Positions 48,909 through 64,000 of a stretch of 64,000 bases of DNA are shown piece by piece. Numbering within the stretch: position 1 is the stretch's first letter; every line of letters starts with the position of its first letter. Origin of the DNA: Acidobacteriota bacterium. GTDB taxonomy: Bacteria; Acidobacteriota; Blastocatellia; HR10. Location: NCBI GenBank assembly GCA_030550025.1, contig JAUQQC010000012.1:8870-72869 (forward strand), given 5' to 3'. Below the pieces are notes generated by a model. It was not told where the DNA came from. It saw nothing but the letters and a program-made list of their open reading frames with translations, and ran no database searches. The position numbers were made by a program, and so were the translations under genes.

Positions 48909-49394
48909 CTAAACGGATTCCCCTTCCAGAGACGCACGGAGCATCCACGCCATCTTCTCATGCCGTTGCAACAGCTCGGTCAGGAAATCGTTCGTCCCCA
49001 TGTCACGATATTTCTCGGCGCACGTCTCCAGGTCGCTCCGCAGGTGCCGAATGATCGCCTCGTGATCCTCTAGCAAATTCGCGAGCATCGCGCGGGCGCT
49101 CGGGTATTTCCCCGGATGTTCCTTCAGGCGCGTACGCTTGAGGAACTCCGCCAGCGTCCCGATGGCGTTGCCCCCGAGCGCGCGAACGCGCTCGGCGACT
49201 TCATCCACGATGTCATTCAAGGCCTCATACTGCTCCTGGAAGAACCGATGCAGCTCGTGAAATTGCGGCCCGGTGACGTTCCAATGATAGTTCCGCGTCT
49301 TCGCGTAGAGGACGAATTCATCGGCCAGGAGCGTATTGAGGATTTCCACGACGCCCTCGCGCTGCCTATCCGTGAGTCCGATGTTCAACTTCAT
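48909..49394 (-). CDS. dps: Dps ferritin-like DNA-protection protein
   Basis: HWNVTGPQFHELH, DEVAER and EKMAWML motifs. Confidence 0.95.
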   Translation of the reverse strand: MKLNIGLTDRQREGVVEILNTLLADEFVLYAKTRNYHWNVTGPQFHELHRFFQEQYEALNDIVDEVAERVRALGGNAIGTLAEFLKRTRLKEHPGKYPSARAMLANLLEDHEAIIRHLRSDLETCAEKYRDMGTNDFLTELLQRHEKMAWMLRASLEGESV

Positions 49395-49423
49395 GGGTCC
49401 TCCTCCTTTTCCTCCCAAGACGT

Positions 49424-50008
49424 TCACGGGAGCACGAGATCCTCGGCCAAGCTGCGCCGCACCTCAGGGGGGATCGTCGCCTCGGCGCGATAGTTCTCGT
49501 GCGCGATGGCGAGCACAGCCGGAAGCGATTCGTCTTTGAAAGCCCGAATCTCCTCGGGGCTCAAGCGGAAGCGCACATAGTGGACCGTGCTCGTCTTGTC
49601 CTCCTTACTGCGTCCGGGCTCATACAAGGCGCGGACCGCGTGCCGATCGCCGATCCGCAGCCAGACCTGTTCCTCGATACCGATAAGCTTCGGCAACCAT
49701 TGGCGCAACACCTCGAGATCGTCGATCTCGATGAGCATGGTCGCGCTCAGCTCGTTGTCTTCGGGGATCAACTCGTTGTAGATGTCGATCTCCTGCTGGA
49801 TCTTGTCCTCGTGGACGATGCGTTCGGCACGCATCATCTCCTGAATTTGGAAGAGGACGGTCTCACGATTCTCGAAGACGAAGGTCACGATGTCCCCCAC
49901 CTGGACGCGGCGCCTCTTCTTCAACTCGATGATCGAGCGCCGAAATTCGTCGCGAATCTTCTCGTACGCGGCGATATCGCGGACGTCCGCGAGCGTGATC
50001 TTCCTCAT
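49424..50008 (-). CDS. DUF3501 family protein
   Basis: FENRETVLFQIQEMMRAE, YNELIP and STVHYVRF motifs; follows the rubrerythrin and Fe-S oxidoreductase genes. Confidence 0.88.
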   Translation of the reverse strand: MRKITLADVRDIAAYEKIRDEFRRSIIELKKRRRVQVGDIVTFVFENRETVLFQIQEMMRAERIVHEDKIQQEIDIYNELIPEDNELSATMLIEIDDLEVLRQWLPKLIGIEEQVWLRIGDRHAVRALYEPGRSKEDKTSTVHYVRFRLSPEEIRAFKDESLPAVLAIAHENYRAEATIPPEVRRSLAEDLVLP

Positions 50009-51279
50009 GGTCGTCTCCCCTCCTCCTCTAATCCATACGCTCGCGCCAGGACCTGAATGGGATGGAGGGGGCGCTTCTCCGTCCCCTGCAGGATCTGCAA
50101 TCCCGCCAACGGGCAATCGGAGACGACGAGATCGAACGGCTCCCGCTCGATCTCGCGGAAGAGCTTCTCAGCGACTTTGAGCGAGAGGGCATGATACTCT
50201 CGCTTGAGGCCCCATGTCCCATCCACCCCGGCGCACCGTTCAATCACATGCACCTTCGTCCCAGGGATCAGCTGCATGAGGTCTCGCGACTTGTACCCGA
50301 TATTCTGAGCGCGAAGGTGGCAGGGAAGTTGGTAGGCGATGCGTTGCGCGCTCGGTTTGAGGTCCGTCTTCAATCGCCCCTCGCCGTGAAGCTTCATAAG
50401 ATATTCGCAGAGATCGAAGCTCCGTTCCGCAAGGCGACGAGCTCTCTCGTCATCCAACAGGACCGGGTACTCGTGCTTGAGCATGTAGCTGCACGTTGGA
50501 CCGGGGATCACGACGTCGTAGCCTCTCTCGACCAGCTCGCCGAGCACCTGCACATTCTCGCGAGCGTGAGCGAGCGCCGCCTCGATATCCCCGCCATCCA
50601 AAAAAGGCATCCCACAACAGCGCTGCGCAGGGACGACAACCTCCAGCTCATTATGCTCGAGGACGCGCACGGCCGCCCGCCCCACGGCCGGATCGTGAAC
50701 ATTGACATAGCACGTGTAAAAGAGCGCTACCTTCCCGTTCCCCGAGAGCCCGTGAGCGCGCCTAGAGGCGCGGAACCAGTCGAGGAATGTCTCCCGATGA
50801 TATTCGGGCAAACGCCGATCCCGATGAATGCCGATCGTTTTTTCCATGAGCACGCGGAAGGGCCGAAGACGATTGGCCAGATTCACAAGCGGCGCCCATC
50901 GGCTCCCCAAGCGCCCTAACGTCTCGGTGCGTCCCAGGATTCGATCCGACCGCGGGATCCCACGTTCCCGGGCTTGGACGGCCTTCGCCCGCAACATGAG
51001 CCGCGGGAAATCGATGTCCCAGCGGTGCGGGGGCGTATAAGGACAGTGGTTGAAGCAGAGCTTGCACTGATAGCAGAGGTCAACGATCCGCGTGACATCT
51101 GCTCGCGTGAGGTTCTCCACGTCCTCGCCCTTGGCGTCAATCAGCTCGAAGAGGACATTGAAGGACGGACAGAGATTGAAACATCGCCGACAGCCATGAC
51201 AAATATCGAAGACGCGCCGCAATTCCCGATCAAGCGCCTCGCGATTCCAAAAGTCCGGCGACCTCAGATCAAACGCCAT
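50005..51279 (-). CDS. Rubrerythrin-associated Fe-S oxidoreductase (GlpC-like, CCG domains)
   Basis: CHGCRRCFNLCP, CYQCKLCFNHCP and CCGMP motifs. Confidence 0.88.
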   Translation of the reverse strand: MAFDLRSPDFWNREALDRELRRVFDICHGCRRCFNLCPSFNVLFELIDAKGEDVENLTRADVTRIVDLCYQCKLCFNHCPYTPPHRWDIDFPRLMLRAKAVQARERGIPRSDRILGRTETLGRLGSRWAPLVNLANRLRPFRVLMEKTIGIHRDRRLPEYHRETFLDWFRASRRAHGLSGNGKVALFYTCYVNVHDPAVGRAAVRVLEHNELEVVVPAQRCCGMPFLDGGDIEAALAHARENVQVLGELVERGYDVVIPGPTCSYMLKHEYPVLLDDERARRLAERSFDLCEYLMKLHGEGRLKTDLKPSAQRIAYQLPCHLRAQNIGYKSRDLMQLIPGTKVHVIERCAGVDGTWGLKREYHALSLKVAEKLFREIEREPFDLVVSDCPLAGLQILQGTEKRPLHPIQVLARAYGLEEEGRRP

Positions 51280-51433
51280 AGTTCACCCCTTTGGGAAGTC
51301 CCCCTCCGGGAGGAGAGGACCTCCGGGTGGCACCAGGGCCACCCGGACGCCCATTCCGTCAAATGGATTCGGAGCAGCTCGCCCGCCCCCTCCCAACCGG
51401 ACATCCCCCGATCGGGGGGGGAGGTTCGGATGC

Positions 51434-51883
51434 TCACGCGAGCGATTCCGCAGGCTCTTTACCCGCGATCTGCTGCAAGCCCTTGGTGAAACGAGCCGCG
51501 TGCGATTTCTCCGCGCGGGCGAGCGTTTCGAACCACTCGGCCAGCTCCTCAAAGCCCTCCTCGCGCGCCGTGCGCGCAAACCCGGGATACATCTCCGTGT
51601 ACTCGTAGGTCTCGCCCTCGATGGCCGACTTCAGGTTCTGCTCGGTCTTGCCAAAGGGCACGCCCGTCACTGGGTCGCCGACTTCCTTGAGGAAGTCCAA
51701 GTGCCCAAAGGCATGACCGGTCTCAGCCTCGGCCGTATCCCGGAAGAGCCCGCCGATCTCCGGATACCCTTCGATATCCGCGATGCGGGCGAAATAGAGA
51801 TAGCGGCGATTCGCCTGCGATTCGCCAGCGAACGCATGCTTGAGGTTCTCCAAGCTCTTCGTCCCGTGTAACGATTTCGCCAT
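51434..51883 (-). CDS. rbr: Rubrerythrin (short form without rubredoxin domain)
   Basis: [28 protein letters not shown] and AEKSHA motifs. Confidence 0.95.
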
Positions 51884-51929
51884 AGTTCCCTCCTCCTTAT
51901 GAGTGTCGTCGTGCGATAGCAAGACGATT

Positions 51930-51958
51930 ATTAAATAAGAATCATTTTCCGTTGTCAA
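51930..51958 (-). promoter_or_regulatory. sigma70 promoter with an overlapping Fur/PerR-like box
   Basis: Minus strand TTGACA-17 nt-TTTAAT; AATAAGAATCATT at 51934-51946 overlaps the spacer and -10 element; strongly AT-rich patch. Confidence 0.7.
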
Positions 51959-52055
51959 GAGGCGGAGGCCTCCGCCCGACGATGGTGCGCGCCGATTGAC
52001 GGCTCGCGCGCGCGGCGTGTAAGATACCGGTGCAAAGCGTGAGGGGAGAACGATC

Positions 52056-52265
52056 ATGAGACCGGCTTTCGTCTTCGGAAATCTGGGGCTGCCGGAACTG
52101 CTCATCATCCTCTTCATCCTCGTCCTACTCTTTGGGGCGAAGCGATTGCCGGAGCTGGCGCGAAGCCTGGGCCAGAGCATCCGCGCGTTCAAGGAGGGGA
52201 CGGCCGAAGTGAAGAAGCTGGAAGATAAAGCGGGCAGCCCTCAAGAAGGATCATCATCGTCCTGA
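52056..52265 (+). CDS. tatA: Twin-arginine translocase subunit TatA
   Basis: LGLPELLIILFILVLLFGAKRLPELARSLG. Confidence 0.95.
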   Translation: MRPAFVFGNLGLPELLIILFILVLLFGAKRLPELARSLGQSIRAFKEGTAEVKKLEDKAGSPQEGSSSS

Positions 52266-52364
52266 ACCGCGGCCGGCGTGGCGTGGTCTTCGGACGGGCG
52301 ACCGCAGGGTATCTGTGGCGCGCGTGTTGTTGTTCATCGAAGGGCGTCACTTGACGCTCCGACC

Positions 52365-54011
52365 TCAACTCACGGACGCATAAAGGCGTTCGATCTCCTG
52401 GTGAAAGCGAGTGAGAATGGCTTCGCGCCGGAGCTTCCCGTTGGCCGTCAGCAAGCCGTTCTCGATCGTGAAGGACTCGGGCAGGATCGCGTATGCTCGA
52501 ATGCGCTTATAGTGGGGGAGCTGCGCGTTGAACGCTTCCAAGGCAGCCTCGACCTGCGCGGGCATGACGGACCCCGTAATCAGGGCCACCAGATGCGGAC
52601 GTCCATGTCCGACGATGACGACGTGCTGGGCATCGGGGAGAGCGCGAAGGAGCGCGTCTTCAAGCGGTTCCGGCGGAACGTTATGGCCGGAACTAAGGAC
52701 GATGAGGTGTTTGACCCGCCCGAGGATGCTCCAATTCCCCCTCGCATCCACCTCGCCGTGATCCCCGGTGCAGAACCAGCCATCGCGGAAAGCCTGAGCT
52801 GTGGCTTGCGGACGATTCCAATAGCCGGGGAAGACGTTGGGGCCGCGCACGAGGATCTCCCCGTTGTCGGCGAGCTTCATCTCGATGCCCGGGATGGCGC
52901 GACCGACGCATCCGGGCACGAAGTCCTCGGGATCGTCCATTGTGCAGATGGCCGTTGTCTCCGTGAGGCCATAGACTTGGAGCACGGGAATGCCGAGCAT
53001 CATGAAGAACAGTTGCGTCTCGCGGTGCAGCGGCGCCGATCCGCAGATGAGCGCCACAAGATGTGGTCCAAGTCGTCTGCGAATCGCATGGAAGAGCGGA
53101 CGGCAGAGCGCAAGCCACAGGAAGTCGCGCGCTGAGGCCACGCCCTCGAAGCGCCGAAACCAAGCCGTCTGGCCGCGCTTGAAGAGGGCGTACAGGATTC
53201 GCCCCTTCTGCCGCAGTTGGTCTTCGATCCTGGCGCGCATCCGCTCCAGAAGGAGCGGAACGTTCAGGAAATAGTGAGGACGGGCCAACTGCAGCTCCTC
53301 ACTCAAGCGCGTGAGATCGGTCGAGAGCGTGAGCACGCTTGGCCGCGACAGGCACGTCAGCAGCAGAATCCATGAACCCGCGAAGCAGAAGGGCAAGTAG
53401 TGGAAGACGCGCTCGGGCGCGCGCCGCGGACCCATGAGCCGATTCAGCCGCTCGTGCGTGTGTGGGAGCATGAAGGTGACGTTCCCGACGGTGAGGACGA
53501 CCCCTTTGGGTTCGCCCGATGTTCCCGATGTGTAGATGATCGTCACCGGTTCCGAATCGGTCCGTGGGATCGGGACGTCGGGGATCGAATCGCTCTGCGG
53601 ACTCGGCGCGAAGACCTCCGCCAAAAGCGGCATCGGGGGGGCTTCCGACCACAGCGGACGCAATCGCTCGCGCAGCGTCTCATCCTCCACGCAAAGGAGC
53701 GCGGGGGAACAATCCTTCAAAATGCCCACCAATTCCGCGGGCGCCTGGCGCGTGTAGAGGGGAACGACGATGACCCCTTCGGCCATCAGGGCGAGATCGA
53801 GCGCGACCCAGCGAATACTATTAGAGGCAAGTACGGCGCAGCGATCGCCCGAGCGCACGCCCTGACGGCGCAGATACGCGCGCGCCGTGCGGACCAAAGC
53901 GAGAAGATCCGCGCCCGTCACTGAGATGATCCGTCCCTGTCGCACTTCCTGAAGGACGGGGCGATGGGCAGCTTCCTGCAACTGCCGGAAGATAGCCTCA
54001 AGGAAGTTCAT
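52365..54011 (-). CDS. Long-chain acyl-CoA synthetase-like AMP-binding enzyme
   Basis: IIYTSGTSGEPKG, YGLTET, TGD and LLTANGKLRR motifs. Confidence 0.9.
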   Translation of the reverse strand: MNFLEAIFRQLQEAAHRPVLQEVRQGRIISVTGADLLALVRTARAYLRRQGVRSGDRCAVLASNSIRWVALDLALMAEGVIVVPLYTRQAPAELVGILKDCSPALLCVEDETLRERLRPLWSEAPPMPLLAEVFAPSPQSDSIPDVPIPRTDSEPVTIIYTSGTSGEPKGVVLTVGNVTFMLPHTHERLNRLMGPRRAPERVFHYLPFCFAGSWILLLTCLSRPSVLTLSTDLTRLSEELQLARPHYFLNVPLLLERMRARIEDQLRQKGRILYALFKRGQTAWFRRFEGVASARDFLWLALCRPLFHAIRRRLGPHLVALICGSAPLHRETQLFFMMLGIPVLQVYGLTETTAICTMDDPEDFVPGCVGRAIPGIEMKLADNGEILVRGPNVFPGYWNRPQATAQAFRDGWFCTGDHGEVDARGNWSILGRVKHLIVLSSGHNVPPEPLEDALLRALPDAQHVVIVGHGRPHLVALITGSVMPAQVEAALEAFNAQLPHYKRIRAYAILPESFTIENGLLTANGKLRREAILTRFHQEIERLYASVS

Positions 54012-54083
54012 CCGACTCCTCCCTTCCATGGTGGACGGCAGCGCCCAAGAGGGCGGTGGGCGATCCCCGCGTTCGGGTCGCCC

Positions 54084-55535
54084 TCACGCACGGGATGAGG
54101 GCTCTCCGCTCGTCGTGGGCTCTTCGACATCATACTCTTCGAGCAATCGGCGCAGTGTGGGGCTGAGCGGGGGGAGGTACTCTTCCCAGGAGAGAATCCC
54201 CCGGCGAACGGGGAATTCCGGATAGCAGCGATGCAGATACTCCTCGAAATGGACCCCCATGCGGGCCATGAGCTTGAGATTCCGAACCACTGTTCGCCCG
54301 ATGTCCTCGCGAATCGCCTCCTGCTCTTTCTGCAGCGTCGTGAGGACGTGCAGCAACTTCTCCTCCAGCTCCGGATCGTCCACCTCCAGAAGTAGGTGCG
54401 CATGGCCGCGCTCCTGCATGAGGTTGCGAATCCGCTCATCCATGGTGACGCCGGCCGAGACGACGCCGGCTGGCATACTGCACACGATGCCGTGATAGCG
54501 CGAAGAGATCATCAAATGCCCGCAGCGGAGGATGCTCACCAGCTGATACATATCGTATTGATCGGAGGCGAAGATGGGGACGCCGCCCAAGCGTTCGGAG
54601 AGACGGCGGCAGGCATCGCGGTCGAGCATCTCCATAGCGACCAGGACGGGGAAGACTCGGCTTCGCTCTTGGAACGCGCGAATGGCATGCGCCAGCGCCG
54701 TCAGATAGCGCTCGTAGCGCGCGACGACTTCCGGTCCCCATCGGTGGAAGTAGATCGTGCGGTAATGGCTCTCGCGATAAGCGCCCGTGAGGGCATGCCA
54801 CGCATATTTCCAGAGCGAGGGTTTCACGGGCCACCAGTAGGGATTGATCGGACAGACTACGAGCACGGGGCGACGCTCATCCCATCCGGCTTCGCGTAAG
54901 GCGGCGCGCCCGTATTCCGGGCCAAGCGGCTCGAACGTCCAGGCCGTATCCGTGCCGAGTTCGGTCGGAATGCCCAGCCGATTCAAAATGACGCGCGATT
55001 CCTCGTTTCGGGTGATGACCAGCGAATGGCGACAATATCGGCTGACCAAGCGCGCCAGAAACGGATCCATCTCCCCCGCTTCCGCGCCATAGCCGATCGA
55101 GAGGCGATTGCGGGCCGAGGCAATCCCAAGCGCGCCGACCATCATGGTCGTGAGGGCATTGGCGAATTTGCTCTTGAACATGGAGCCCTCGCAGGCGATG
55201 ACGCCATCGTATTTCGGGACCTCGCGCGCGAGCATCGGAGGGAAGACATCGGGGAGCTTGATCTGCTGCGCTCCTTGGAAATACCCGCGCGTCAGCTCGA
55301 AATTCTGCGTCATGACGCTCAGGCTGACGTTCTCATCTCCGAGGATGTGTCGGATCTGCCGCACCATCTCCTCGACGCGCACGTCGGCCCCCGTATTGCG
55401 CGCGCCGTTGTATCCGGCAAAGAGGAGTTTCAGCTTCTCCCCGGGTCGCCATCGATCGCCAAAGCCGAGAATCCACTGGAGCTTGAACCATTCGATCGTC
55501 GCCCCCACCCAGAGTTCGAGGATCACGTCCATCAT
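54084..55535 (-). CDS. Polysaccharide pyruvyl transferase-like protein
   Basis: [22 protein letters not shown] and SSRYHG, a CsaB/WcaK-like pattern. Confidence 0.7.
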
Positions 55536-56725
55536 AGCGCGCCCTCAGATTCGCGAAGATGCGAGGCCAGAACGCGCGGAGGGATTGCTTCGACGTCCTC
55601 CGGCCACGCTTTGTAGGGATAGGCGAAGCGATGCGTCGTGCTGAAGACGTAGAGCGGGTAGCAATACTCGGAGAACGGTGGAGGGGTACGTCCGAGTTCT
55701 TCCACCACGCGCGTGTTGTCAAAGACCGTGTTCCACACCAGATACGGCATAAAGACCTTGAGCAACGACGCCACGTAGCCGACCGTCGTGCGGCGACGCT
55801 CGGCGAGCCAGTTCACCACGGCCGTGAACGGACGCTCCAACGCGGGCAGGTACAGCGGTCGAGGGGTCCGGCGGGCTCGCGCCAAGGCATCGGTCAATTG
55901 GCGGAAGGTTTGCGCTCCCGCGCCGGCCGAGAGGTGATACGTGTCATATCGCGGCCGCTCTTTCTGATGGAGCGCGACAATGGCTTCGGCGACGAAGTCC
56001 ACCGGGACGATATCCAGGCGATCGTCCGGGCGAAACGGCAGCACGGGCAGACTCGCCAGGAAGACGAAAGCGCGCACCATGTCGAACTGCGTCGTGGCGC
56101 CGTAGCGGCTGTCGCCGAGCACGATGCTCGGGCGAAAGATCGTGCGGGGGACATCGGGCAGCAACTCTCGGATCATGTGCTCGCAGAACTTCTTCGTCCG
56201 CGCGTAGGGATCGTAATCCGGGCGATTCCAGTCAATGGCCTCATCCTCCCGCACGATCTCGTCCTTCCGATGACCGGCGACGGCCACCGTGCTCACGTGG
56301 CTGAAGCGACGCAGGCCGTGATGATCGCGGGCGGCCAGAGCGAGCTTGAGGACTTCCAGCGTCCCGCGCAGATTGACGTTCAGACAGCTGCGCTCGGACC
56401 GCCGATTGAGCGACGCCGCGCAGTGAATGATCGAATCCGTCGTATGCGCGAGCTGCCGATACTCGACCTCCGAGAGGCCGAAGCGCGGCTCCGTCAGATC
56501 GCCCACATAGAGCGTCAGGCGCGTCTGCAGATACTCGTAGAAGGTCGGGAAATCCAGATGCAATTGGAACGCTTGCCACAGGCGGTGAGCAGCTTCCTTC
56601 GGCCCTCTGGCGCGCACGAGCAGGTTCAGATGATCCGTGTGGCGCTCCAACAACAGCACCGCCACATGAGCGCCAATATAGCCCGTCGCTCCCGTGAGCG
56701 TGATGGCCATCGTCGAACGGCTCAA
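55532..56725 (-). CDS. Extended SDR, fatty-acyl/thioester reductase-like
   Basis: [25 protein letters not shown] and VPVDFV motifs. Confidence 0.85.
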
Positions 56726-59079
56726 TCTCCCGACGACCCCGCCGCCGCTCCCATGCTCGAAGGCGTCAACGATCCGGAGGCGCGGCGCGATGGTTCTTCG
56801 ATCGAACGCCCCTCAATCAACGGATACGACCAACGGCGAAGGGCTGGGATGTGAATATTGATCCAATACTCCCACCAATCGATGCCGGTGACGTCGTAGC
56901 CGAAGGTCTCGCGCTCTTCGGGCACGAGCGCCGCCTGCAGCCACTCGATGTGCGTCGCTTCGAAGATATGCTCATTGTGGAGGATGAACGGTTCGTACAG
57001 CTCGATCAGTTTCTCCACGCGATCCAGATCGCGCTCCTTCCGCACGAGCGAGGGATGGACAAAGGGCAGCGGCGCGCTGAATCGCTGCAGCGCTTGAATG
57101 AGCGCTTTCTGACTCGGCACCGAGAGCCGCTCATACCGTTCCTTGGAGACCGGGATGGGATCGAAGAAGGCGCGCAGCCGATATTCCAGCTCCTTTTGCG
57201 CGCGGTAGAACTTGCGATGGGCGAGCCCTGTCAGCTCGATCGAGCGACGCATGGGACAGGGATTGCGCATGGAGGTCGCCAGATGATACACCCGCTCGTG
57301 GCACCGTTGGCAGAGCGCGGCGGCGATGAGCATCATGCCCCGCACGACCAGATCCACCGGGATGACATCCAAGCGCTTCCATTGATTGGAGGGGAGCTGC
57401 CGAAAGTACGTCCCCAACAGATAGGAGATGGGCGCTGACGTGTTCACGCCCTCGTTCCATCCTCGGAACGGCTCCACGATGGAGCTCTCGACGATGGAGG
57501 GACGCACGACGGCGATGGGCAAATCGCCCCCTCGCGTGAAGAGCAACGACTCGCCCAGACTCTTCGTGAACGTGTACGTGTTGGGCCATCCCAACTCTTG
57601 CGCGCGGCGCATCCCGGCTTCCACAAGTTGATTGCGAATCCAGCGCAGCCGATATCGGCGGAGCCGCGTCTCCAGCCCAGAGGAGCTACTGTCGTGCGCC
57701 TGGCGAGCCTTCTCCAGCGCCTGCCGCCGCAGTTCCTCGGTGACCTCCGCGCTCTCGGCGCGCTCGCAAATCTCGCGCACGAGCGCGTGCAAGGCTTGGC
57801 GCTCCCGCTCGGCATCAAAATCGGGTACCCCTCGGGGAGTATAGTTCGCGACGGGAACCTCCGGGATGTACCCATCCCGATATCCAACGACATAGCAGGT
57901 CGAGAGATGCAACAGCGCCGCCCGCTCGCACTGCCGCACGAAGTCGAGCACTCGGAGCGTTCCCTCTACGTTGATCGCCAGCGCGTCGCGAAGATCTGGG
58001 TTGAAATCGGTCAACCCTGAGCTGTTGACCACCAGATCGAGCGTCTTCTGCAAGCGCGCGCGCGTCTCCGGGTCAATTCCCAGATCGGGCTGGGTGATAT
58101 CTCCCGCGATGACTTCGACCCGCTCGTTCAAGTATCGCCCGAGCTCCTCCCCATAGCGTTCGTGCAAGGGCTCGAAGACCGGCGACTCGGCCAGGAGCAT
58201 TTCAAAACGGCGTTTGGCCGAAGTCGCGCGATGCGGACGGATGAGCAGATACAGGCGCCCGATCTCGGGCAAGTCCTTCAAGACCTTGGCCAGCCACACC
58301 TTCCCAATGAACCCCGTCCCCCCGATGAGCAAGATGTGCTTGCCGGCGAGCGCCTCGCGTACCGAGAGGCGCTGGATCGGCTTCGGTTTTCGGAAGAGCA
58401 CTAAACGAGAAGGGATCGAGGGCGCTTCCCCCTCTCGACGAGCCGGCGTGATCGCGCACCAGATGACGTGGGTCGGGAGATTGAGATCGCGCGCCAGTTG
58501 CTCCACCGAGAGGCGACCATCAGCCGAGAGGCCGCGCAGTCGCGCCAGTGCACCGCGCGGGCGGATCACCGGATCGAGCAGCCGCCCAGTCGCCAACCCC
58601 GCACGAAACTCCAACCGATTAGCGAGGATGTATGGGACGCCCAGATGCTGCGCCAGAGGACGCAGGATGTGTTCCACCGCCTGACTCACCAGAACGATCG
58701 GGGCACCCCGAGCGGCGAGTTGCTGCACGCGTGCGACCGCTTCCTTGTTCAAGCGCGGCTTGAGGACATAGTGGAAATATTCTTCTCCCAGGAGGTCGAG
58801 GCGATCCCGACTGATACCGCGCAAAAGCGCATGCAGCATGCGCGTGGCCAAGACGCGATCGGTCAGATAGAGAACGGGGCGAATCACGGCCGAGAGTGCC
58901 AAACTCATGCGCCGCGCCCATCGTTCGGCGAAGCTCTGCGCGTTCCACGTGAAGAAGGCGATCGGACGCACGGCGCTCAGGTTCAACAAGCTCCCTTCCA
59001 CGCGCCAGAAGATCCACTGATCCGGAACGCTCGCAGTGTGCGATCGACACGCTTCAGACATACAGCAACTCGACGACAC
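56722..59079 (-). CDS. Fusion of a degenerate HAD-IB domain and a fatty acyl-CoA reductase
   Basis: N-terminal HAD-like region (VLVS, ANRLEF..GLATGRL); C-terminal [33 protein letters not shown] and IPVD motifs. Confidence 0.85.
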
Positions 59080-59127
59080 CTCTTCTCCGTTTCGATTCCC
59101 CGATCATGCCCCGTGAGATCGGCCCAC

Positions 59128-59155
59128 AGTATAGCAAAGTTTGACAGAGAATCAA
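59128..59155 (-). promoter_or_regulatory. Promoter of the reductase operon
   Basis: Minus strand TTGATT-16 nt-TATACT with an extended TGn; a TTTGA-N7-TCAAA inverted repeat overlaps the -35 element. Confidence 0.55.
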
Positions 59156-59352
59156 AGTCGGGATAAGCAGTCCACCCGCTGGCGCGCTCCCGATCCCCAT
59201 GCGCGAGCGGAATGAGCCTCCGAGACGCCTTCGGGCACGGGGCGTCTCGGCCGACATCGCTTTTTGGTCTGGCTGGAACCCCCGTCCGATGTCTACAATT
59301 GGCTGCTGCCTGCGGTGGAGATATCGGAGGGCGGCAAGCGGAGGGTTCACGT

Positions 59353-59571
59353 ATGATCATTGACTTCCGCGCGATCGCGCACTTGATCCCGGGATGGATC
59401 TTCAACGAGTACGGGCAACTCACGGGCCGATACGTCCACCGAGATCGGATCGTCTGCGTCGCCGAGAACGGGCGCATCCAGGTCTGGGTGGATCGCGAGG
59501 CGTACGAGAATCGGGATCCGGAAGGGCTCATCTGCGACTACGACGCCCGCGATTTGCTCGGCATGCGATGA
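59353..59571 (+). CDS. Small hypothetical protein (72 aa)
   Basis: GAGGG RBS; MIIDFRAIAHLIPGWIFNEYG...; genome-like codon usage. Confidence 0.6.
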   Translation: MIIDFRAIAHLIPGWIFNEYGQLTGRYVHRDRIVCVAENGRIQVWVDREAYENRDPEGLICDYDARDLLGMR

Positions 59572-59595
59572 GCGAAGATCAGCGGCGAGGAAATT

Positions 59596-59624
59596 TTGAG
59601 TCAACGACGGCCTCCTGCTAAAAT
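59596..59624 (+). promoter_or_regulatory. Promoter of the ferredoxin-deacetylase-ACP-ligase-kinase operon
   Basis: TTGAGT-17 nt-TAAAAT with an extended TGn. Confidence 0.6.
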
Positions 59625-59663
59625 AGCCCTCTCCAGCCGGAGGGGGGAGCCCCCGTCAAGGTC

Positions 59664-60692
59664 ATGATTTCGGGCGATGGGGCTATGAGGGATGGGCGAC
59701 TCTTTGAAGCTTTCTTGAACCGGCATGATGAAGACGCGTGGCAGCGGATCCTGGCCGAGCTGGAGCCGCATATTCACGAGGTGGACCGAGTGGCCACGCG
59801 CATTTGGTTTCACTTCTTCCCGCTCTCGCTGGCGCAGGCGTTACAGGAGGCGGAGGATCCGCAGGTATTGGCGCGCGAGCTGTTCCTCGATGGGAAGTAT
59901 CGGCTTGCGGATCAGATCGATTCCTCGCATCGGTTTCTGTACGGCCACCGATATTGGCCGGAGGTGAAGCGCGCGCTCATCGAGTATGCGCAGTCGCCGC
60001 GCACGTTGCAGACGTTGGAATTAGCCGGGCACATTCGTGAGGTCGCCTCCCACGTGGCTGAACGACGGCGCATCGAGCCCTCGCTCGTCGTGGGGATCAC
60101 GGCCGTCGCCTTCATGACGCTGCAACAGGTGGGATGGGCGGCCTTCGAAGCGGCTCCGGGCACGATCGCGCTTGATCCTCAGATCGCCGCGCGCACGCCC
60201 GAGGAAGTGCTCGCTTATCGAGCACGCGACGATCGTCAGCGCTTCTTCTACTGGTGGAAGTATCCAGACAAGGTGTGGACGATCACATTCGATGAGAACG
60301 ATCCTGAGGCGACGTTCCGGTTGATCAACCGTCAGCATCTGACGACGGCAGCGGCCCAGGACAAGCGCCCTTATCATCTTCGCGATCCGCGATGCGTGCC
60401 CAATGAAGGGCCGATCCCCGTCCAATGCCGGTCTGGGTCGTGCGGATCGTGTTGGGTGGGTGTGCTCGGCGGCGCCGAGAAGCTCTCGGAGATGGAGGAG
60501 TACGAGCGGCGTCGGCTGCGGGAGTTCGGATACATTGAGACCGAGGAACCGAAGCCCATCATTCGCTTGGCATGTCAGGCGCGCGCGTTTGGGGCGGTCT
60601 CGATCGTAATCCCGCCGTGGAACGGCGTCTTCGGGCGTTTCCTGCGGAAGTGGAAGCAGCAACGTTCGATGGAGCTGACGGGGACGCCATGA
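59664..60692 (+). CDS. Protein with an unknown N-terminal domain and a C-terminal 2Fe-2S ferredoxin
   Basis: CRSGSCGSC...RLACQ motif. Confidence 0.8.
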   Translation: MISGDGAMRDGRLFEAFLNRHDEDAWQRILAELEPHIHEVDRVATRIWFHFFPLSLAQALQEAEDPQVLARELFLDGKYRLADQIDSSHRFLYGHRYWPEVKRALIEYAQSPRTLQTLELAGHIREVASHVAERRRIEPSLVVGITAVAFMTLQQVGWAAFEAAPGTIALDPQIAARTPEEVLAYRARDDRQRFFYWWKYPDKVWTITFDENDPEATFRLINRQHLTTAAAQDKRPYHLRDPRCVPNEGPIPVQCRSGSCGSCWVGVLGGAEKLSEMEEYERRRLREFGYIETEEPKPIIRLACQARAFGAVSIVIPPWNGVFGRFLRKWKQQRSMELTGTP

Positions 60693-60741
60693 TGTTGCGA
60701 GAGGGCCTTCGGAGGAGGCGCTCTCGCCAAAGGAGGCGGAG

Positions 60742-61731
60742 ATGAGAGCACGCGTTCTCTTATTGGGATGCCTCGGGGCGGCGACGCTCCTGGCCTTCTG
60801 GGGAGCGGCGCGCTCGACCGATCCGATGCGTCAGGAGCCGCCGTGGCGGTGGCCTGAGAGCCGCGTCTTGGAGGTCGCTCGCCGAGTGCGTGCCGGACGC
60901 GATCTGACGCCCAGGCAGTGGCCGGGCGGCGCTCGCGTCGCCGTCGGCCTCTCGTTCGACTTCGATAACGAGACGCCGGCACTGCGCGATGGACAAACGT
61001 CCCCGGCCCTCATGGCGCAGGGCGAATATGGGGCGCGCGCGGGTCTGCCGCGCGTTCTGCGCCTTTTGGATAAGTATCAGATCCCGGCGACGTTCTTCAT
61101 CCCCGCTATGAGCGCGAAACTCCATCCACACTCGGTGCGGGAGATCCTCGCGCGAGGACGGCATGAGATCGCCTTGCACGGGTGGATTCACGAGCGGAAT
61201 TCTCTGCTCTCGGAAGACGAAGAGCGGGAGCTGATGCGTCGGAGCTTGGAGGCCTTGGAGCAGATCACCGGGCGCCGGCCCGTAGGGATTCGGACGCCTT
61301 CGTGGGATTTCAGCCCGTGGACGATGAAGCTCATTCGCGAATTCGGATTGCTCTACGACAGCAGCCTCATGGCGGACGACCGACCTTACGAAGTCCTGCT
61401 GGAGGGCGTGCCGACAGGGGTCGTGGAGCTTCCCGTCGAATGGATTTTGGACGATTACCCCTACTTCGGTATGGATCGGCAATCCGCCATTCGGCCGCAT
61501 ACGACGCCGGAGGAAGTCTTCTCAATCTGGCGCGACGAGTTCGATCAGGCCTACGAGGAAGGCACGATCTTCATCCTCACGATGCATCCGCATATCATCG
61601 GGCATCGGTCGCGCATCGTCATGCTCGAACGGCTGATCCAGCACATGCGGCGGCAACCGGGCGTGTGGTTCGCCACGCATGAGGAAATCGCACGCTACGT
61701 GCGGGAGGCCGGTCGTCAACCGGCGAAATGA
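60742..61731 (+). CDS. Polysaccharide deacetylase (CE4), exported
   Basis: SFDFD, HGWIH, RTPSW, YDSS and MHPH motifs; signal peptide. Confidence 0.88.
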   Translation: MRARVLLLGCLGAATLLAFWGAARSTDPMRQEPPWRWPESRVLEVARRVRAGRDLTPRQWPGGARVAVGLSFDFDNETPALRDGQTSPALMAQGEYGARAGLPRVLRLLDKYQIPATFFIPAMSAKLHPHSVREILARGRHEIALHGWIHERNSLLSEDEERELMRRSLEALEQITGRRPVGIRTPSWDFSPWTMKLIREFGLLYDSSLMADDRPYEVLLEGVPTGVVELPVEWILDDYPYFGMDRQSAIRPHTTPEEVFSIWRDEFDQAYEEGTIFILTMHPHIIGHRSRIVMLERLIQHMRRQPGVWFATHEEIARYVREAGRQPAK

Positions 61732-61751
61732 ATCGAGGAGGGACGGCGAGG

Positions 61752-61994
61752 ATGCGCACGTTGGAACAGACGATCGAAGAGTTGCTCGATCTGGCAGCGC
61801 GCTATTTTCGCCTGCCGCGAGAGCAACTCTCCCCGGACGACGATCTCTTCGAGAAGCTGCGGATTGATAGCTTGCAAGCGCTGGAGTTGCTCGGGCGCCT
61901 GGAGCAACATTTTCAAATCGAGTTGCCGGATTACGAGTTGCAGGGAGTGACGAGTTTCCGAGCTTTGGCCGAGCGCATCCATGCGAGGTTGTGA
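61752..61994 (+). CDS. Acyl carrier protein
   Basis: About 80 aa acidic protein with the IDSLQALEL phosphopantetheine site. Confidence 0.88.
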
Positions 61995-63703
61995 TGCTGG
62001 AGTTGGAGCGTTATCAGTCGCTCGGAGAGGCGCTCCGCGATGCGCTGGAGCGGTGGGCGGGTTACACCTGCCTGATTGAGGCTGATCGCGAGCGCGAGAA
62101 TTGTCGGCTGACGTATCGGCAGTTCAAGGAGCGGGCCCTGCCGCTGGTGAGCGCGCTGCAGCAGCAGGGTTTCGCCCCCGATACGCGCGCGGCCATCATC
62201 ATGACCAATCAATCGAAGTGGTTGATCTCAGCCTATGCCATCTTTTATGCGGGCGGCGTGCTCGTCCCCCTCGATTACAAGCTGAGTCCGCGCGAGCAGA
62301 TCGGATTGCTGCGGCATGCGCGTGCCTCAGTGCTCATCACGGAATTTCCATTCTGGCGCGCACTGCGACAAGAAGCCGGATGGCACGAGCTATCGCTGCG
62401 GTTGGTCCTGGTGACGGAAGCGCCGCCGGAGGCGGACCTGGGCGAGGCCGTGCGCTGGGAGGAATTTCGCGGCGATGGTGAGCCGACCTTCATTCCGCGC
62501 CGACGCCAGGACGTCGCCTGTATCGTCTATTCCTCGGGCACGGGCGGGCGTCCCAAAGGTTGCGTCCTGACTCACGAGAACTATCTCGAACAATGTCGCT
62601 CGCTCACGGCCATCTATCCCTTCTCTCCCGAGGTGCGCTACTTGAGCATCCTGCCGACGAATCACGCTATTGATTTCATGGTCGGGTTCATCGGCCCATT
62701 CGTCTGCGGGGCGACGGTCGTGCATCTACGCACGCTTCGGCCCGAGTACATCCGCGAGGCCTTCGTGCGCTACAAGATCACTCATATGACCGTCGTGCCG
62801 ATGATCCTCAAGAACTTGGAGCGCGGATTGCGCGAACGGTTCGCGGCTCTCCCCCGGCACAAGCGCGCGCTGCTTCATGCGCTCATGCGGCTCAATCGGT
62901 GGCTCACGCGCCGGCGGCCGAACGTGCGGCTCAGCCGCCGCCTCTTCCCCGACGTCCATCGCGCTTTTGGCGGGCACCTGGAGATGCTCATCGTCGGCGG
63001 CGCGTTCACCGAGCCGTCCACATTGCAATTCTTCTACGACCTTGGGATTCCCGTTGCCAATGGCTATGGGCTCACTGAAGCGTGCACAGCCGTCACGGTG
63101 AATGATCTCCGGCCGTTTCGTGCCGACACCGTGGGCAGACCGCTGCCCGGCGTGGAGGTGAAGATCCTTGACCCGGATGCTGAGGGGATCGGCGAAGTCG
63201 CCGTTCGCGGGAAGAATGTGATGGCGCATTATCTGGACGATCCGGAGCTGACGGCTGAGACGATCGTAGACGGATGGTTGCTCACGGGCGATCTTGGCTG
63301 GATAGATGAGATGGGCCATCTGCATCTGGTCGGGCGGAAGAAGAACATGATCGTGACCGAGGGGGGGAAGAACATCTACCCCGAAGACGTGGAGACGTTT
63401 TTCGAGGGGCTGCCCGTGAAGGAGTTCTGCATCTTCGCGGCCAATTACCTATGGCCGGAGCGACGGTTGGGCCAGGAACAGCTCCTTCTCGTCGTGCATC
63501 CAGCGCCTGGGGAAGACCTCAGCGAGGTCGTGCGGCAGCAGATTCGCGAGCGCAATCGTCGGCTACCGGAGTATAAGCGTGTGCACGGATACCTCATCTG
63601 GGATCGCGACTTCCCGCGGACGGCATCGCTGAAGATCAAGCGGACGGTTCTGGCCGAGGAGATTCGCACGCGCCGGAGTCGCGCCGACGTCCTGTGGCTA
63701 TGA
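61991..63703 (+). CDS. Long-chain acyl-CoA/acyl-ACP synthetase-like AMP-binding enzyme
   Basis: [23 protein letters not shown] and [10 protein letters not shown] motifs. Confidence 0.9.
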
Positions 63704-64000
63704 GTCGAGGTCGCGATCATTTCTTCGCCATCGTCAATCCGGCTGCGGGTGGAGGACGGTGTGGGAAGCGGGCCGAGTCCGTGCTGGCCGAACTTCGGGC
63801 GCACGGCCTGACAATGGAGGTCGTCTGGACGCGCGGACCCGGCGACGCGACCGCGCAGACGCGCGCGGCATATCGCGAAGGGTATCGCTCCTTCCTCATC
63901 GTTGGGGGCGATGGGACGACGTTCGAGGTCCTCAACGGGGTGTTCCCGGAGGCCGAGGGCGGGCCCGAGCGTCCGCGTTTGGCACTGCTCCCATTGGGGA
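63700..64000 (+). CDS. Diacylglycerol/sphingosine kinase family lipid kinase (runs off right edge)
   Basis: Not in the ORF track. Manual translation gives [19 protein letters not shown]...[14 protein letters not shown]...LALLPLG; ATGA-coupled to the ligase. Confidence 0.88.

Follow-up and report, generated by a model that had tools for sequence, protein, structure and literature searches.

The window, by which we mean the whole 64,000-nucleotide stretch of DNA analysed here, ends in two divergent operons whose genes recall a bacterial ether-lipid pathway, and the question is whether they form one lipid-making system and how it relates to the known one. The source organism is an uncultured hot-spring acidobacterium. 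All nine genes that the original prediction had placed in the leftward and rightward operons are intact open frames at the expected places with their domains confirmed by Pfam (Table 1), and the first three leftward genes overlap as it had described, by 4 nt at each junction; 4-nt overlaps are also present at the CE4/ACP and ACP/ligase 2 junctions. A database twin of the HAD-FAR fusion begins 6 codons later than the longest frame. The whole kinase gene (324 aa) extends 668 nt beyond the window, and directly 3' of it, past base 64000, is a PlsC-family acyltransferase gene, the true start of which is probably near L001 3550–3600. It had been noted that no acyltransferase lies in the window, which is literally so, but the search beyond 64 kb proposed at that time finds this PF01553 gene right after the kinase; the cluster is therefore cut by the window end, and the acyltransferase function is not missing.

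Table 1. Features of the divergent cluster (window positions unless a locus is named).
Feature	Position	Strand	Domain evidence and remarks
Ligase 1, acyl-CoA/AMP ligase, 554 aa	52365..54029	-	PF00501 195.6 bits, AMP-binding_C_3; last gene of leftward operon
Pyruvyl-transferase-family protein, 483 aa (P0002), candidate key enzyme	54084..55535	-	PS_pyruv_trans PF04230, 35.9 bits (cut-off 25.3)
Stand-alone thioester reductase, 397 aa	55532..56725	-	NAD_binding_4 167.6 bits
HAD-FAR fusion, 785 aa (longest frame)	56722..59079	-	HAD PF12710, NAD_binding_4, Sterile (C-terminus)
Divergent spacer	59080..59663		One promoter-like site per strand, small ORF
342-aa protein with C-terminal 2Fe-2S (Fer2) domain	59664..60692	+	PF00111 28.8 bits, residues 250-308 only; first rightward gene
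CE4 polysaccharide-deacetylase-family protein, 329 aa	60742..61731	+	Polysacc_deac_1 PF01522 69.7 bits
Discrete acyl carrier protein (ACP), 88 aa	61728..61994	+	PP-binding PF00550 55.6 bits
Ligase 2, 570 aa, counterpart of ElbD adenylation (ACS) domain	61991..63703	+	AMP-binding PF00501 243.4 bits
YegS/DAGK-family lipid kinase, 5' part	63694..64000	+	DAGK_cat, YegS_C (whole protein)
PlsC-family acyltransferase, outside window	L001 3325-4416 (longest frame)		PF01553 70.4 bits

The closest characterised counterpart is the elbA-E ether-lipid operon of M. xanthus, in which ElbD has the domain order FAR-ACS-ACP-AGPAT (Lorenzen et al. 2014, via the summary in PMC9131029), although even there the ether-forming step has not been assigned. 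Our reference was another myxobacterial elb operon, that of Vitiosangium sp. GDMCC 1.1324 (L113), with domains assigned by Pfam. The FAR domain with its Sterile region, the adenylating ligase, the carrier, the PlsC-type acyltransferase and the PF12710 HAD part all have homologous counterparts at this locus. Residues 18–172 and 238–768 of the fusion match ElbB (30% identity, E 6e-20) and the ElbD FAR domain (34%, E 1e-82) respectively, ligase 2 matches the ACS domain (34%, E 5e-84) better than does ligase 1 (29%), and the acyltransferase matches the ElbD acyltransferase domain (29%, E 1.5e-9). Similarity between the ACP and the carrier domain of ElbD-type proteins is low (34%, E 1e-4), and ligase 2 is 33–37% identical to 120 proteins of ElbD architecture. 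For the FAR part, the 120 best long homologues (36–42% identity) uniformly have that architecture, with PF07993, PF00501 and PF01553. In the genome, which is 98.7% complete, the fusion and the thioester reductase are the only two strong NAD_binding_4 genes.

The differences from elb are equally clear. The four ElbD domains are spread over four genes in two operons, and the HAD part is fused to the FAR domain, with WRVEGS in all 15 fusions where ElbB has its motif I DxDGT, and with no motif IV region; judged from its sequence, the fused HAD domain is a degenerate, ElbB-like domain without its nucleophile. A genome-wide search gave no match for ElbC (Lar_N), and none of the cluster genes is an orthologue of ElbE, the thioester reductase giving no match to it; since ElbD comes with both proteins in myxobacteria and other Acidobacteria, the chemistry may differ. 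Added relative to elb are the thioester reductase, the PF04230 protein, a second ligase, a crotonase and the lipid kinase. The earlier description as a split, remodelled ElbD pathway fits the four ElbD domains, and the HAD part matches ElbB, but the cluster is more than a split ElbD, with ElbC and ElbE missing and four other enzymes accompanying it.

The host group is that of the ether-lipid-producing SD4 Acidobacteria, which are reported to make alkyl glycerol ethers, with elb genes as the proposed route. The lipid had been called undescribed, and our literature search found no published description of this gene set, but elb homologues in SD4 Acidobacteria, split ones included, have already been reported (canonical elbBCDE: Sinninghe Damste et al. 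2018). Canonical acidobacterial elbBCDE operons (e.g. L103–L106, L010) share the phylum and presumed role of the cluster, and L103 and L106 have a lipid kinase homologue nearby, adjoining the fused ElbD gene as also in L107 and L109; unlike the cluster, they are 45–63% identical to the myxobacterial operon and keep ElbC and ElbE.

Among 401 sampled Acidobacteriota genomes the HAD-FAR fusion is found in 14 and the pyruvyl-transferase-like gene in 15, 14 of which are exactly the fusion genomes (61–100% identity). Each fusion genome has one FAR-type match and no second; the other 66 matches, one of them in the unpublished genome G049, are FAR-only and lie mostly in open frames of 1440–1580 aa. 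All 27 genomes of family f4, in which the fused form occurs, lack the pyruvyl-transferase-like gene, and it was not found in Vitiosangium with its canonical operon, so that the canonical and split systems look like alternatives; they never occur together in any of the 401 genomes.

The gene content of both operons is conserved. In 13 of 13 relatives the four leftward genes (module A) are contiguous, the reductase, pyruvyl-transferase-like protein and ligase 1 sharing 50–71% identity, with ligase 1 (50–64%) directly after the pyruvyl-transferase-like gene; in 11 relatives a crotonase gene follows ligase 1 directly. The window's genome has its crotonase copy on contig C10 (61–67% identity, both hydratase glutamates present), where it is relocated. 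The rightward ACP-ligase-kinase module (module B) is likewise kept, the ACP (61–72%) directly preceding ligase 2 (64–71%) in every relative, and the kinase (49–58%) following it in 12; in the thirteenth, G189, no kinase was detected behind ligase 2. The acyltransferase (68–76%) comes after the kinase in four relatives and not in eight.

With moderate confidence, we interpret the window as carrying, in rearranged form, a single conserved but uncharacterised elb-related lipid pathway whose product is probably an alkyl-ether glycerolipid; most likely this is a fatty-alcohol-derived and probably ether-linked molecule. Module A would consist of the pseudo-HAD-FAR fusion, the thioester reductase, the pyruvyl-transferase-family enzyme, ligase 1 and the crotonase, and module B of the ACP, ligase 2, the lipid kinase and the PlsC-type acyltransferase. 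Ligase 2 would load a fatty acid onto the ACP and the FAR domain would reduce it to a fatty alcohol, to which the pyruvyl-transferase-like enzyme, ligase 1, crotonase and thioester reductase may attach, and then process, a three-carbon unit; the resulting lipid alcohol would be phosphorylated by the kinase and acylated by the acyltransferase to give a phosphatidic-acid-like precursor. Such a gene set may help to explain the origin of ether-type membrane lipids in some aerobic bacteria.

An alternative explanation, possible but unlikely in our view, is that the cluster makes a reduced lipid other than an ether: free fatty alcohols or aldehydes, alkyl phosphates, wax-type esters or another alcohol-based polar lipid. 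The two reductases, two ligases and kinase would suffice for a fatty alcohol and an alkyl phosphate. The proposed phylogenetic check against ElbD did not nest the FAR domain within the fused ElbD clade; in an unrooted FastTree tree it clusters outside, with stand-alone FAR-like proteins of unassigned function, which would accommodate a non-ether product, as would the ElbD homologues reported from bacteria without detected ether lipids (Pontiella). However, the PlsC-type acyltransferase and DAG-kinase-type enzyme speak for a backbone resembling that of a glycerolipid, a genome search made without a positive control found no wax synthase, and the cluster and canonical elb are mutually exclusive in the sample.

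It is improbable that the chemistry is simply that of M. xanthus elb, with ElbD cut into genes, ElbB fused to the reductase and the extra genes dispensable passengers. The counterparts for every ElbD domain and ElbB are consistent with this, as are the split elbD variants that have been reported from Poribacteria and from Acidobacteria of soil, but the lack of ElbC and ElbE, the loss of the HAD nucleophile in every fusion and the position of the FAR domain argue against it. The supposed passengers are also retained, with the thioester reductase, pyruvyl-transferase-like and ligase 1 genes contiguous with the fusion in all 13 relatives and the pyruvyl-transferase-like gene tracking the fusion through all 14 genomes. 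Among solved structures, the thioester reductase (TIGR01746 154.7 bits, under the cut-off of 213) has its best relatives in the MxaA reductase (4u7w, E 2.3e-28) and in the R domains of Mtb Nrp and of CAR enzymes. Together with ligase 1 and the ACP it forms the A-T-R logic of those enzymes, but as discrete proteins in a lipid context and with a second, FAR-type reductase adjoining.

The putative pyruvyl-transferase assignment is based on a modest Pfam score (Table 1). To our knowledge, every characterised PF04230 member pyruvylates sugars, and the CE4 gene is translationally coupled to the ACP gene; the two might modify a sugar head group, giving a pyruvylated or deacetylated glycolipid or a polysaccharide anchor, akin to the 'modified glycolipid' of the original prediction. 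We give this little credence, as the queries used found no glycosyltransferase in the cluster or the relatives' fetched loci, the CE4 gene has no tblastn match (E<=1e-5) in any of 24 loci retrieved from the 13 relatives, and the pyruvyl-transferase-like gene is set between reductase and ligase in all of them. The protein resembles CsaB, WcaK and other polysaccharide pyruvyl transferases in exceeding the Pfam gathering score and in its GT-B-like predicted fold (AF2 model, pLDDT 80.7; generic GT-B matches only), but it is far under the CsaB equivalog cut-off (TIGR03609, 59.6 bits versus 213), is modelled with an additional helix at the N-terminus and a helical extension at the C-terminus, and lacks a polysaccharide gene context. 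Sequence searches gave no solved relative and 7781 homologues, the best 120 clusters of which are unusually conserved (67–89% identity).

The CE4 protein itself scores 126.8 bits against TIGR03212, under the cut-off of 424.6. The gene called a ferredoxin does not encode a plain one, since its Fer2 domain is confined to the C-terminus; an NCBIfam search gave no match, and look-alikes in the atlas are Fer2 proteins of 330–345 aa, mostly from Acidobacteriota. An orthologue (65% identity) lies directly before the ACP gene in only one of the 13 relatives, the same-order G291. By these comparisons the Fer2 and CE4 genes are lineage-specific additions and not parts of the system as had been supposed, whereas the other added enzymes (thioester reductase, pyruvyl-transferase-like protein, ligase 1 and crotonase) do travel with it.

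That the operons are unrelated neighbours placed back to back by chance, as their separate transcription here and the occurrence of module B on another contig in four of 13 relatives might suggest, is extremely improbable given that both modules are present in all 13, form one co-directional array in nine, and, by analogy to ElbD, the FAR domain would need the ACP and ligase of the other operon. The divergent operons are best read as a single system. Co-occurrence in other genomes, proposed as a check of the pathway, is borne out, but the two-operon layout belongs to this lineage and does not characterise the system as a whole; with both modules conserved and co-directional in most relatives, it represents a local inversion of one conserved system.

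Each operon was also predicted to have its own promoter. The 584-nt spacer does contain one sigma-70-like site per strand (59155–59128 on the minus and 59596–59624 on the plus strand; two found versus 0.2 expected in shuffles), although both are no more than matches to the consensus. Contigs from two RNA libraries of one study cover 30/30 and 28/30 bins at >=99% identity with uneven depth, and among the contig pieces listed, ends fall at 59074 and starts at 59317/59325; such libraries can contain DNA, so the contigs are not proof of transcription, and the two raw-read runs yielded 0 reads. The spacer also includes a small ORF without a Pfam match (59353–59571, plus strand, 72 aa), with a GGAGG 8 nt upstream.

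The cluster at 52365-64000 holds a genuine and conserved lipid system that is related to elb but rearranged; its product is unproven. Open reading frames, together with Pfam and NCBIfam matches, give nine genes, all intact, that form two divergent units (see table). Overlaps of 4 nt join the fusion to the reductase gene, the reductase gene to the PF04230 gene, the CE4 gene to the ACP gene, and the ACP gene to that of ligase 2. The 584-nt divergent spacer has one sigma-70-like site on each strand (2 found, 0.2 expected), and the G+C content is 0.60-0.65 across the cluster, without a compositional break. The spacer also holds a short ORF, just upstream of which RNA-library contigs start; this ORF has no Pfam match and no tblastn match among the loci of the relatives, that is, the 13 other Acidobacteriota genomes with the fusion.

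The full-length kinase matches both DAGK_cat (78.4 bits) and YegS_C (88.9 bits). The original prediction noted that no acyltransferase lies in the window, and reading past base 64000 supplies one: a PlsC-type gene (PF01553, 70.4 bits against a cut-off of 23) directly follows the kinase, and its translation contains NHVNIFD and AEGTRT, which we take to be the HX4D and EGTR motifs of such enzymes. Next in order come a 197-aa ORF, a PEMT/ICMT-like membrane protein, a beta-lactamase-family protein, a CN hydrolase and BshC, and none of these five is kept beside the cluster in the relatives.

Features of the cluster and associated loci. Plain coordinates are those of the window; G000 is the window's own genome, C-numbers are contigs, and L001 is the window's contig read past base 64000. 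The last column gives the BLAST match to Vitiosangium elb proteins.
Feature	Location	Orientation	Description	Vitiosangium match (identity, E)
HAD-FAR fusion		leftward	785 aa; HAD (PF12710) + FAR (NAD_binding_4 + Sterile)	HAD part to ElbB 30%, 6e-20; FAR part to ElbD FAR 34%, 1e-82
Thioester reductase		leftward	397 aa	
PF04230 protein		leftward	483 aa; polysaccharide pyruvyl transferase family	
Ligase 1		leftward	554 aa; AMP-binding	ElbD ACS 29%, 3.5e-45
2Fe-2S protein		rightward	342 aa; sole domain is C-terminal 2Fe-2S	
CE4 protein		rightward	deacetylase family	
ACP		rightward	88 aa	
Ligase 2		rightward	570 aa	ElbD ACS 34%, 5e-84
Lipid kinase		rightward	YegS/DAGK type; 5' part in window, whole protein 324 aa	
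Acyltransferase	past 64000		PlsC type	ElbD AT 29%, 1.5e-9
Spacer ORF	59353-59571	+	72 aa; GGAGG 8 nt upstream; RNA-library contig starts at 59317/59325	
Ferritin-like	48909-49427	-		
DUF3501	49424-50116	-		
CCG + 4Fe-4S protein	50005-51279	-		
Rubrerythrin	51434-52192	-	greatest depth in RNA-library contigs	
ORF and membrane protein	L001 4525-6275 (= window 65655-67405)		197-aa ORF without family; 370-aa protein with C-terminal PEMT/ICMT-type methyltransferase domain	
Glycerol genes	L001 13706-16880		glycerol kinase (FGGY); glycerol-3-phosphate dehydrogenase/oxidase (DAO + DAO_C)	
Tes-like gene	G000:C13:118512-120533		81% identical to the copy upstream of the fusion in G291	
Tes-like gene	G000:C27:6413-7891		33% paralogue	
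HGD-D frames	G000:C23:146853-149121		two adjacent, 395 and 478 aa; 2-hydroxyacyl-CoA dehydratase type	
Cas6-family gene	L114 6407-7447 (G000:C10)		some 2.3 kb from the C10 crotonase	
PF04230 paralogue	G051:C12:17569-18933		43% identity	
PF04230 paralogue	G361:C148:28487-29818		40% identity	
FabH-like gene	L091 17188-18186		between crotonase and ACP	
FabH-like gene	L093 17136-18140		between crotonase and ACP	

A review (PMC9131029) describes the M. xanthus elb operon as encoding two NAD epimerase family proteins (ElbA and ElbE), a HAD protein (ElbB), ElbC, whose function is not known, and ElbD, with the architecture FAR-ACS-ACP-AGPAT; it presents the route to the alkyl ether as unsolved even for ElbD. 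Our named myxobacterial reference, Vitiosangium sp. GDMCC 1.1324, was reached through the genome behind locus L089, and its operon runs in the order HAD, Lar_N protein, ElbD and Epimerase-family protein. A search of genome contigs with an ElbD alignment picked up generic AMP-binding motifs, with a full ElbD-type gene in one of 80 loci (L010) and no Myxococcus among the 80; its Pyrinomonadaceae and Blastocatellia loci were rejected as carrying unrelated ligases.

Whereas ElbD of the M. xanthus type is one polypeptide, FAR, ACS, ACP and acyltransferase are here divided among four genes. Every one of the 120 best long homologues of the FAR part shows the ElbD architecture (36-42% identity), and in BLAST comparisons with these proteins ligase 2 is closer to the ACS domain (33-37%) than is ligase 1 (29-34%). 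The ACP matches the ElbD-type carrier domain weakly (34%, E 1e-4, in 2 of the 120), and the acyltransferase gives a weak match to their last domain. No frame of ElbD length was found in the window's genome, which has a single FAR-type match and only two strong NAD_binding_4 genes. ElbC (Lar_N) has no tblastn match at E<=1e-5 in this whole genome or in the loci of the 13 relatives, and for ElbE there is nothing beside the cluster and only weak paralogues (24-30% identity) elsewhere in the genome; a comparison of the 397-aa reductase with ElbE gave no match. Conversely, the 20-kb Vitiosangium locus lacks counterparts of the thioester reductase, PF04230 protein, 2Fe-2S protein, CE4 protein and kinase. 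Canonical elbB-C-D-E operons do occur in other Acidobacteria (L103-L106 and L010), where they are 45-63% identical to the myxobacterial operon and include ElbC by tblastn; a third, more distant fused type adjoins a kinase (L107-L109).

Among 401 Acidobacteriota genomes, the window's own included, the fusion finds a match (E<=1e-20) in 80: 14 over the full length (56-100% identity), each with one FAR-type match, and 66 on the FAR part only, mostly within frames of 1440-1580 aa. One of these 66 (G049) is an unpublished genome, on which no other figure depends. Of the 401 genomes, 15 have the PF04230 protein, and these are exactly the 14 fusion genomes (61-100% identity) and one with a 43% paralogue; it is present in none of the 27 genomes of family f4, all of which have the fused form, and is not found in Vitiosangium. 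Two distant paralogues lie outside the cluster, one of them in a genome (G051) without the fusion.

A synteny search had been proposed as a check on whether the two operons belong together, and within the Acidobacteriota it bears this out. In the 20-kb loci centred on the fusion, all 13 relatives keep the fusion, reductase gene, PF04230 gene and ligase 1 in this order, and a crotonase of 267-290 aa follows ligase 1 in 11. The genes for ACP, ligase 2 and kinase come next and are co-directional in nine relatives, forming one array (G189 lacks the kinase there), and are on a different contig in the other four; the acyltransferase follows the kinase in 4/13. The window's two operons are therefore halves of one conserved array, placed head to head in this genome by reorientation. 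The 2Fe-2S protein is common to the window's genome and the same-order relative G291 only, directly preceding ACP in the latter, and the CE4 gene is absent from the fetched loci of all 13. Two genomes of family f3, in the same class, have a FabH-like gene between crotonase and ACP. Upstream of the fusion, 2/13 relatives carry a radical SAM gene of Tes-like type (NF045702, 318 bits, short of the cut-off at 450), and the window's genome has two Tes-like genes on other contigs.

The proposed phylogeny of the FAR domain was made with Vitiosangium ElbD as the myxobacterial member (147 rows without characterised wax-ester reductases; FastTree, midpoint-rooted only for display). A split with support 98 has on one side the 18 HAD-FAR rows (support 100) and 57 FAR-like proteins that stand alone (465-595 aa), and on the other 45 fused ElbD-like rows, Vitiosangium ElbD among them. 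The suggested kinship to elb thus stands, but the fusion lies outside the fused ElbD side of the tree and is therefore a relative of elb rather than a piece recently split off from a fused ElbD. The few names within the stand-alone group, such as the Planctomycetota 'SDR family oxidoreductase', say little about role. The fused HAD domain scores 56.4 bits against PF12710. In our alignment ElbB proteins have DVDGT, DLEGT or DLDGT at what we take to be HAD motif I (DxDGT), whereas 15/15 fusions have WRVEGS, and the fusions lack the stretch carrying the ElbB DSxSD motif, presumably the motif IV region. Because of both departures, this domain is most likely not a phosphatase.

The PF04230 protein scores 35.9 bits (cut-off 25.3) and falls well below the CsaB equivalog TIGR03609 (59.6 against 213.1). 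It is highly conserved, with 7781 matches, the best 120 of which are 67-89% identical; source names include Acidobacteria, Terriglobia and Xenobia MAGs. Its predicted model (pLDDT 80.7) resembles a GT-B fold and has an additional N-terminal helix and C-terminal helical extension; Foldseek returned only generic GT-B folds (TM 0.34-0.51), and a PDB sequence search with the alignment gave 0 matches at E<=1. The thioester reductase is above the cut-off for NAD_binding_4 (167.6 against 20.1 bits) and below that for TIGR01746 (154.7 against 213.35); among solved structures it is closest to MxaA, the R domain of Mtb Nrp and the R domains of CAR enzymes. The crotonase (PF00378) of the window's genome is on contig C10 between unrelated genes, with a Cas6-family gene nearby. 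In an alignment with the 3-hydroxybutyryl-CoA dehydratase 5jbw, its GGGLELA and FPELRLG stretches correspond to GGGTELA and LTEVKLG, so that it retains both hydratase glutamates, which we assume to be the catalytic residues.

By analogy with ElbD, ligase 2 would charge the ACP and the FAR domain would yield a fatty alcohol. Since a PEP-type transferase, a CoA ligase, a hydratase-type crotonase and a four-electron-type thioester reductase stand in place of ElbC and ElbE, these four might put a C3 unit on the alcohol and then process it; the kinase and PlsC enzyme could convert the resulting lipid alcohol to a phosphatidate analogue. In its most specific and decidedly speculative form, which we consider improbable as it stands, a three-carbon ether-linked backbone would be built de novo from phosphoenolpyruvate, rather than by alkylating glycerol phosphate or DHAP. 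The PF04230 enzyme would join the FAR-made fatty alcohol to PEP to give an enolpyruvyl (2-alkoxyacrylate) ether, ligase 1 would form its CoA thioester, hydration by the crotonase would give 2-O-alkylglyceroyl-CoA, and the thioester reductase would release an alkylglycerol, to be phosphorylated by the kinase and acylated by the PlsC-type enzyme. This scheme predicts an ether at the central carbon and gives every conserved gene a role, all steps being proposed. If true, it would be an oxygen-tolerant route to ether lipids without flavin or radical chemistry, and a candidate way into the ether and brGDGT-type lipids of Acidobacteria.

A sphingolipid-type reading, suggested by the combination of ACP, ligase and lipid kinase, was dropped, as no cluster gene scanned has an aminotransferase-family domain. 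Searching the genome for a wax synthase (PF03007) gave no match, but no control genome gave one either. The PF02913 search, made as a check for AGPS, found only two adjacent frames (470 and 447 aa, contig C21), which we infer to be GlcD/GlcE-like. Two adjacent HGD-D frames are present on contig C23.

Published sources report that alkyl glycerol ethers are a product of SD4 Acidobacteria, that some SD4 genomes have the elb cluster (Sinninghe Damste et al. 2018 being the primary source), that split elbD variants are known from soil Acidobacteria, and that acidobacterial ether and membrane-spanning lipids, whose biosynthesis is debated, underlie brGDGT climate proxies. Formation of the alkyl ether bond in aerobic bacteria is an unsolved problem, for which the split set offers concrete, separable candidates for the missing chemistry. 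It represents a second set of companions round the same core of FAR, ligase, ACP and acyltransferase, mutually exclusive with the canonical one, and includes a very conserved PF04230 enzyme from a family not linked to lipids in the literature searched; none of the papers listed in these searches combined a pyruvyl transferase with ether lipids or with Acidobacteria. To this the window adds a HAD domain that appears catalytically degenerate, and it shows that the system tolerates division into a module from fusion to ligase 1, a module from ACP to acyltransferase, and a lone crotonase, in a thermophilic lineage that also bears a Tes-like radical SAM gene.

In two metatranscriptomic libraries, both from one study, contigs with an identity of at least 99% span 30/30 and 28/30 bins of 51001-64000. 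Depth is uneven, at 4-28 over the cluster and 73-122 over the rubrerythrin gene in library X1. Among the contig pieces listed, one ends at 59074 and others begin just 5' of the spacer ORF, and none of those listed spans the spacer; these ends fit two divergent transcripts, and DNA carry-over is possible. Sampling about 3/100 of each of two raw-read runs (X5 and X6) placed 0 reads. Rubrerythrin belongs to a set of iron and oxidative-stress genes (48909-52192) directly left of the cluster, and some 10 kb downstream, beyond CdaA-YbbR-GlmM, are genes for a glycerol kinase and a glycerol-3-phosphate dehydrogenase/oxidase.
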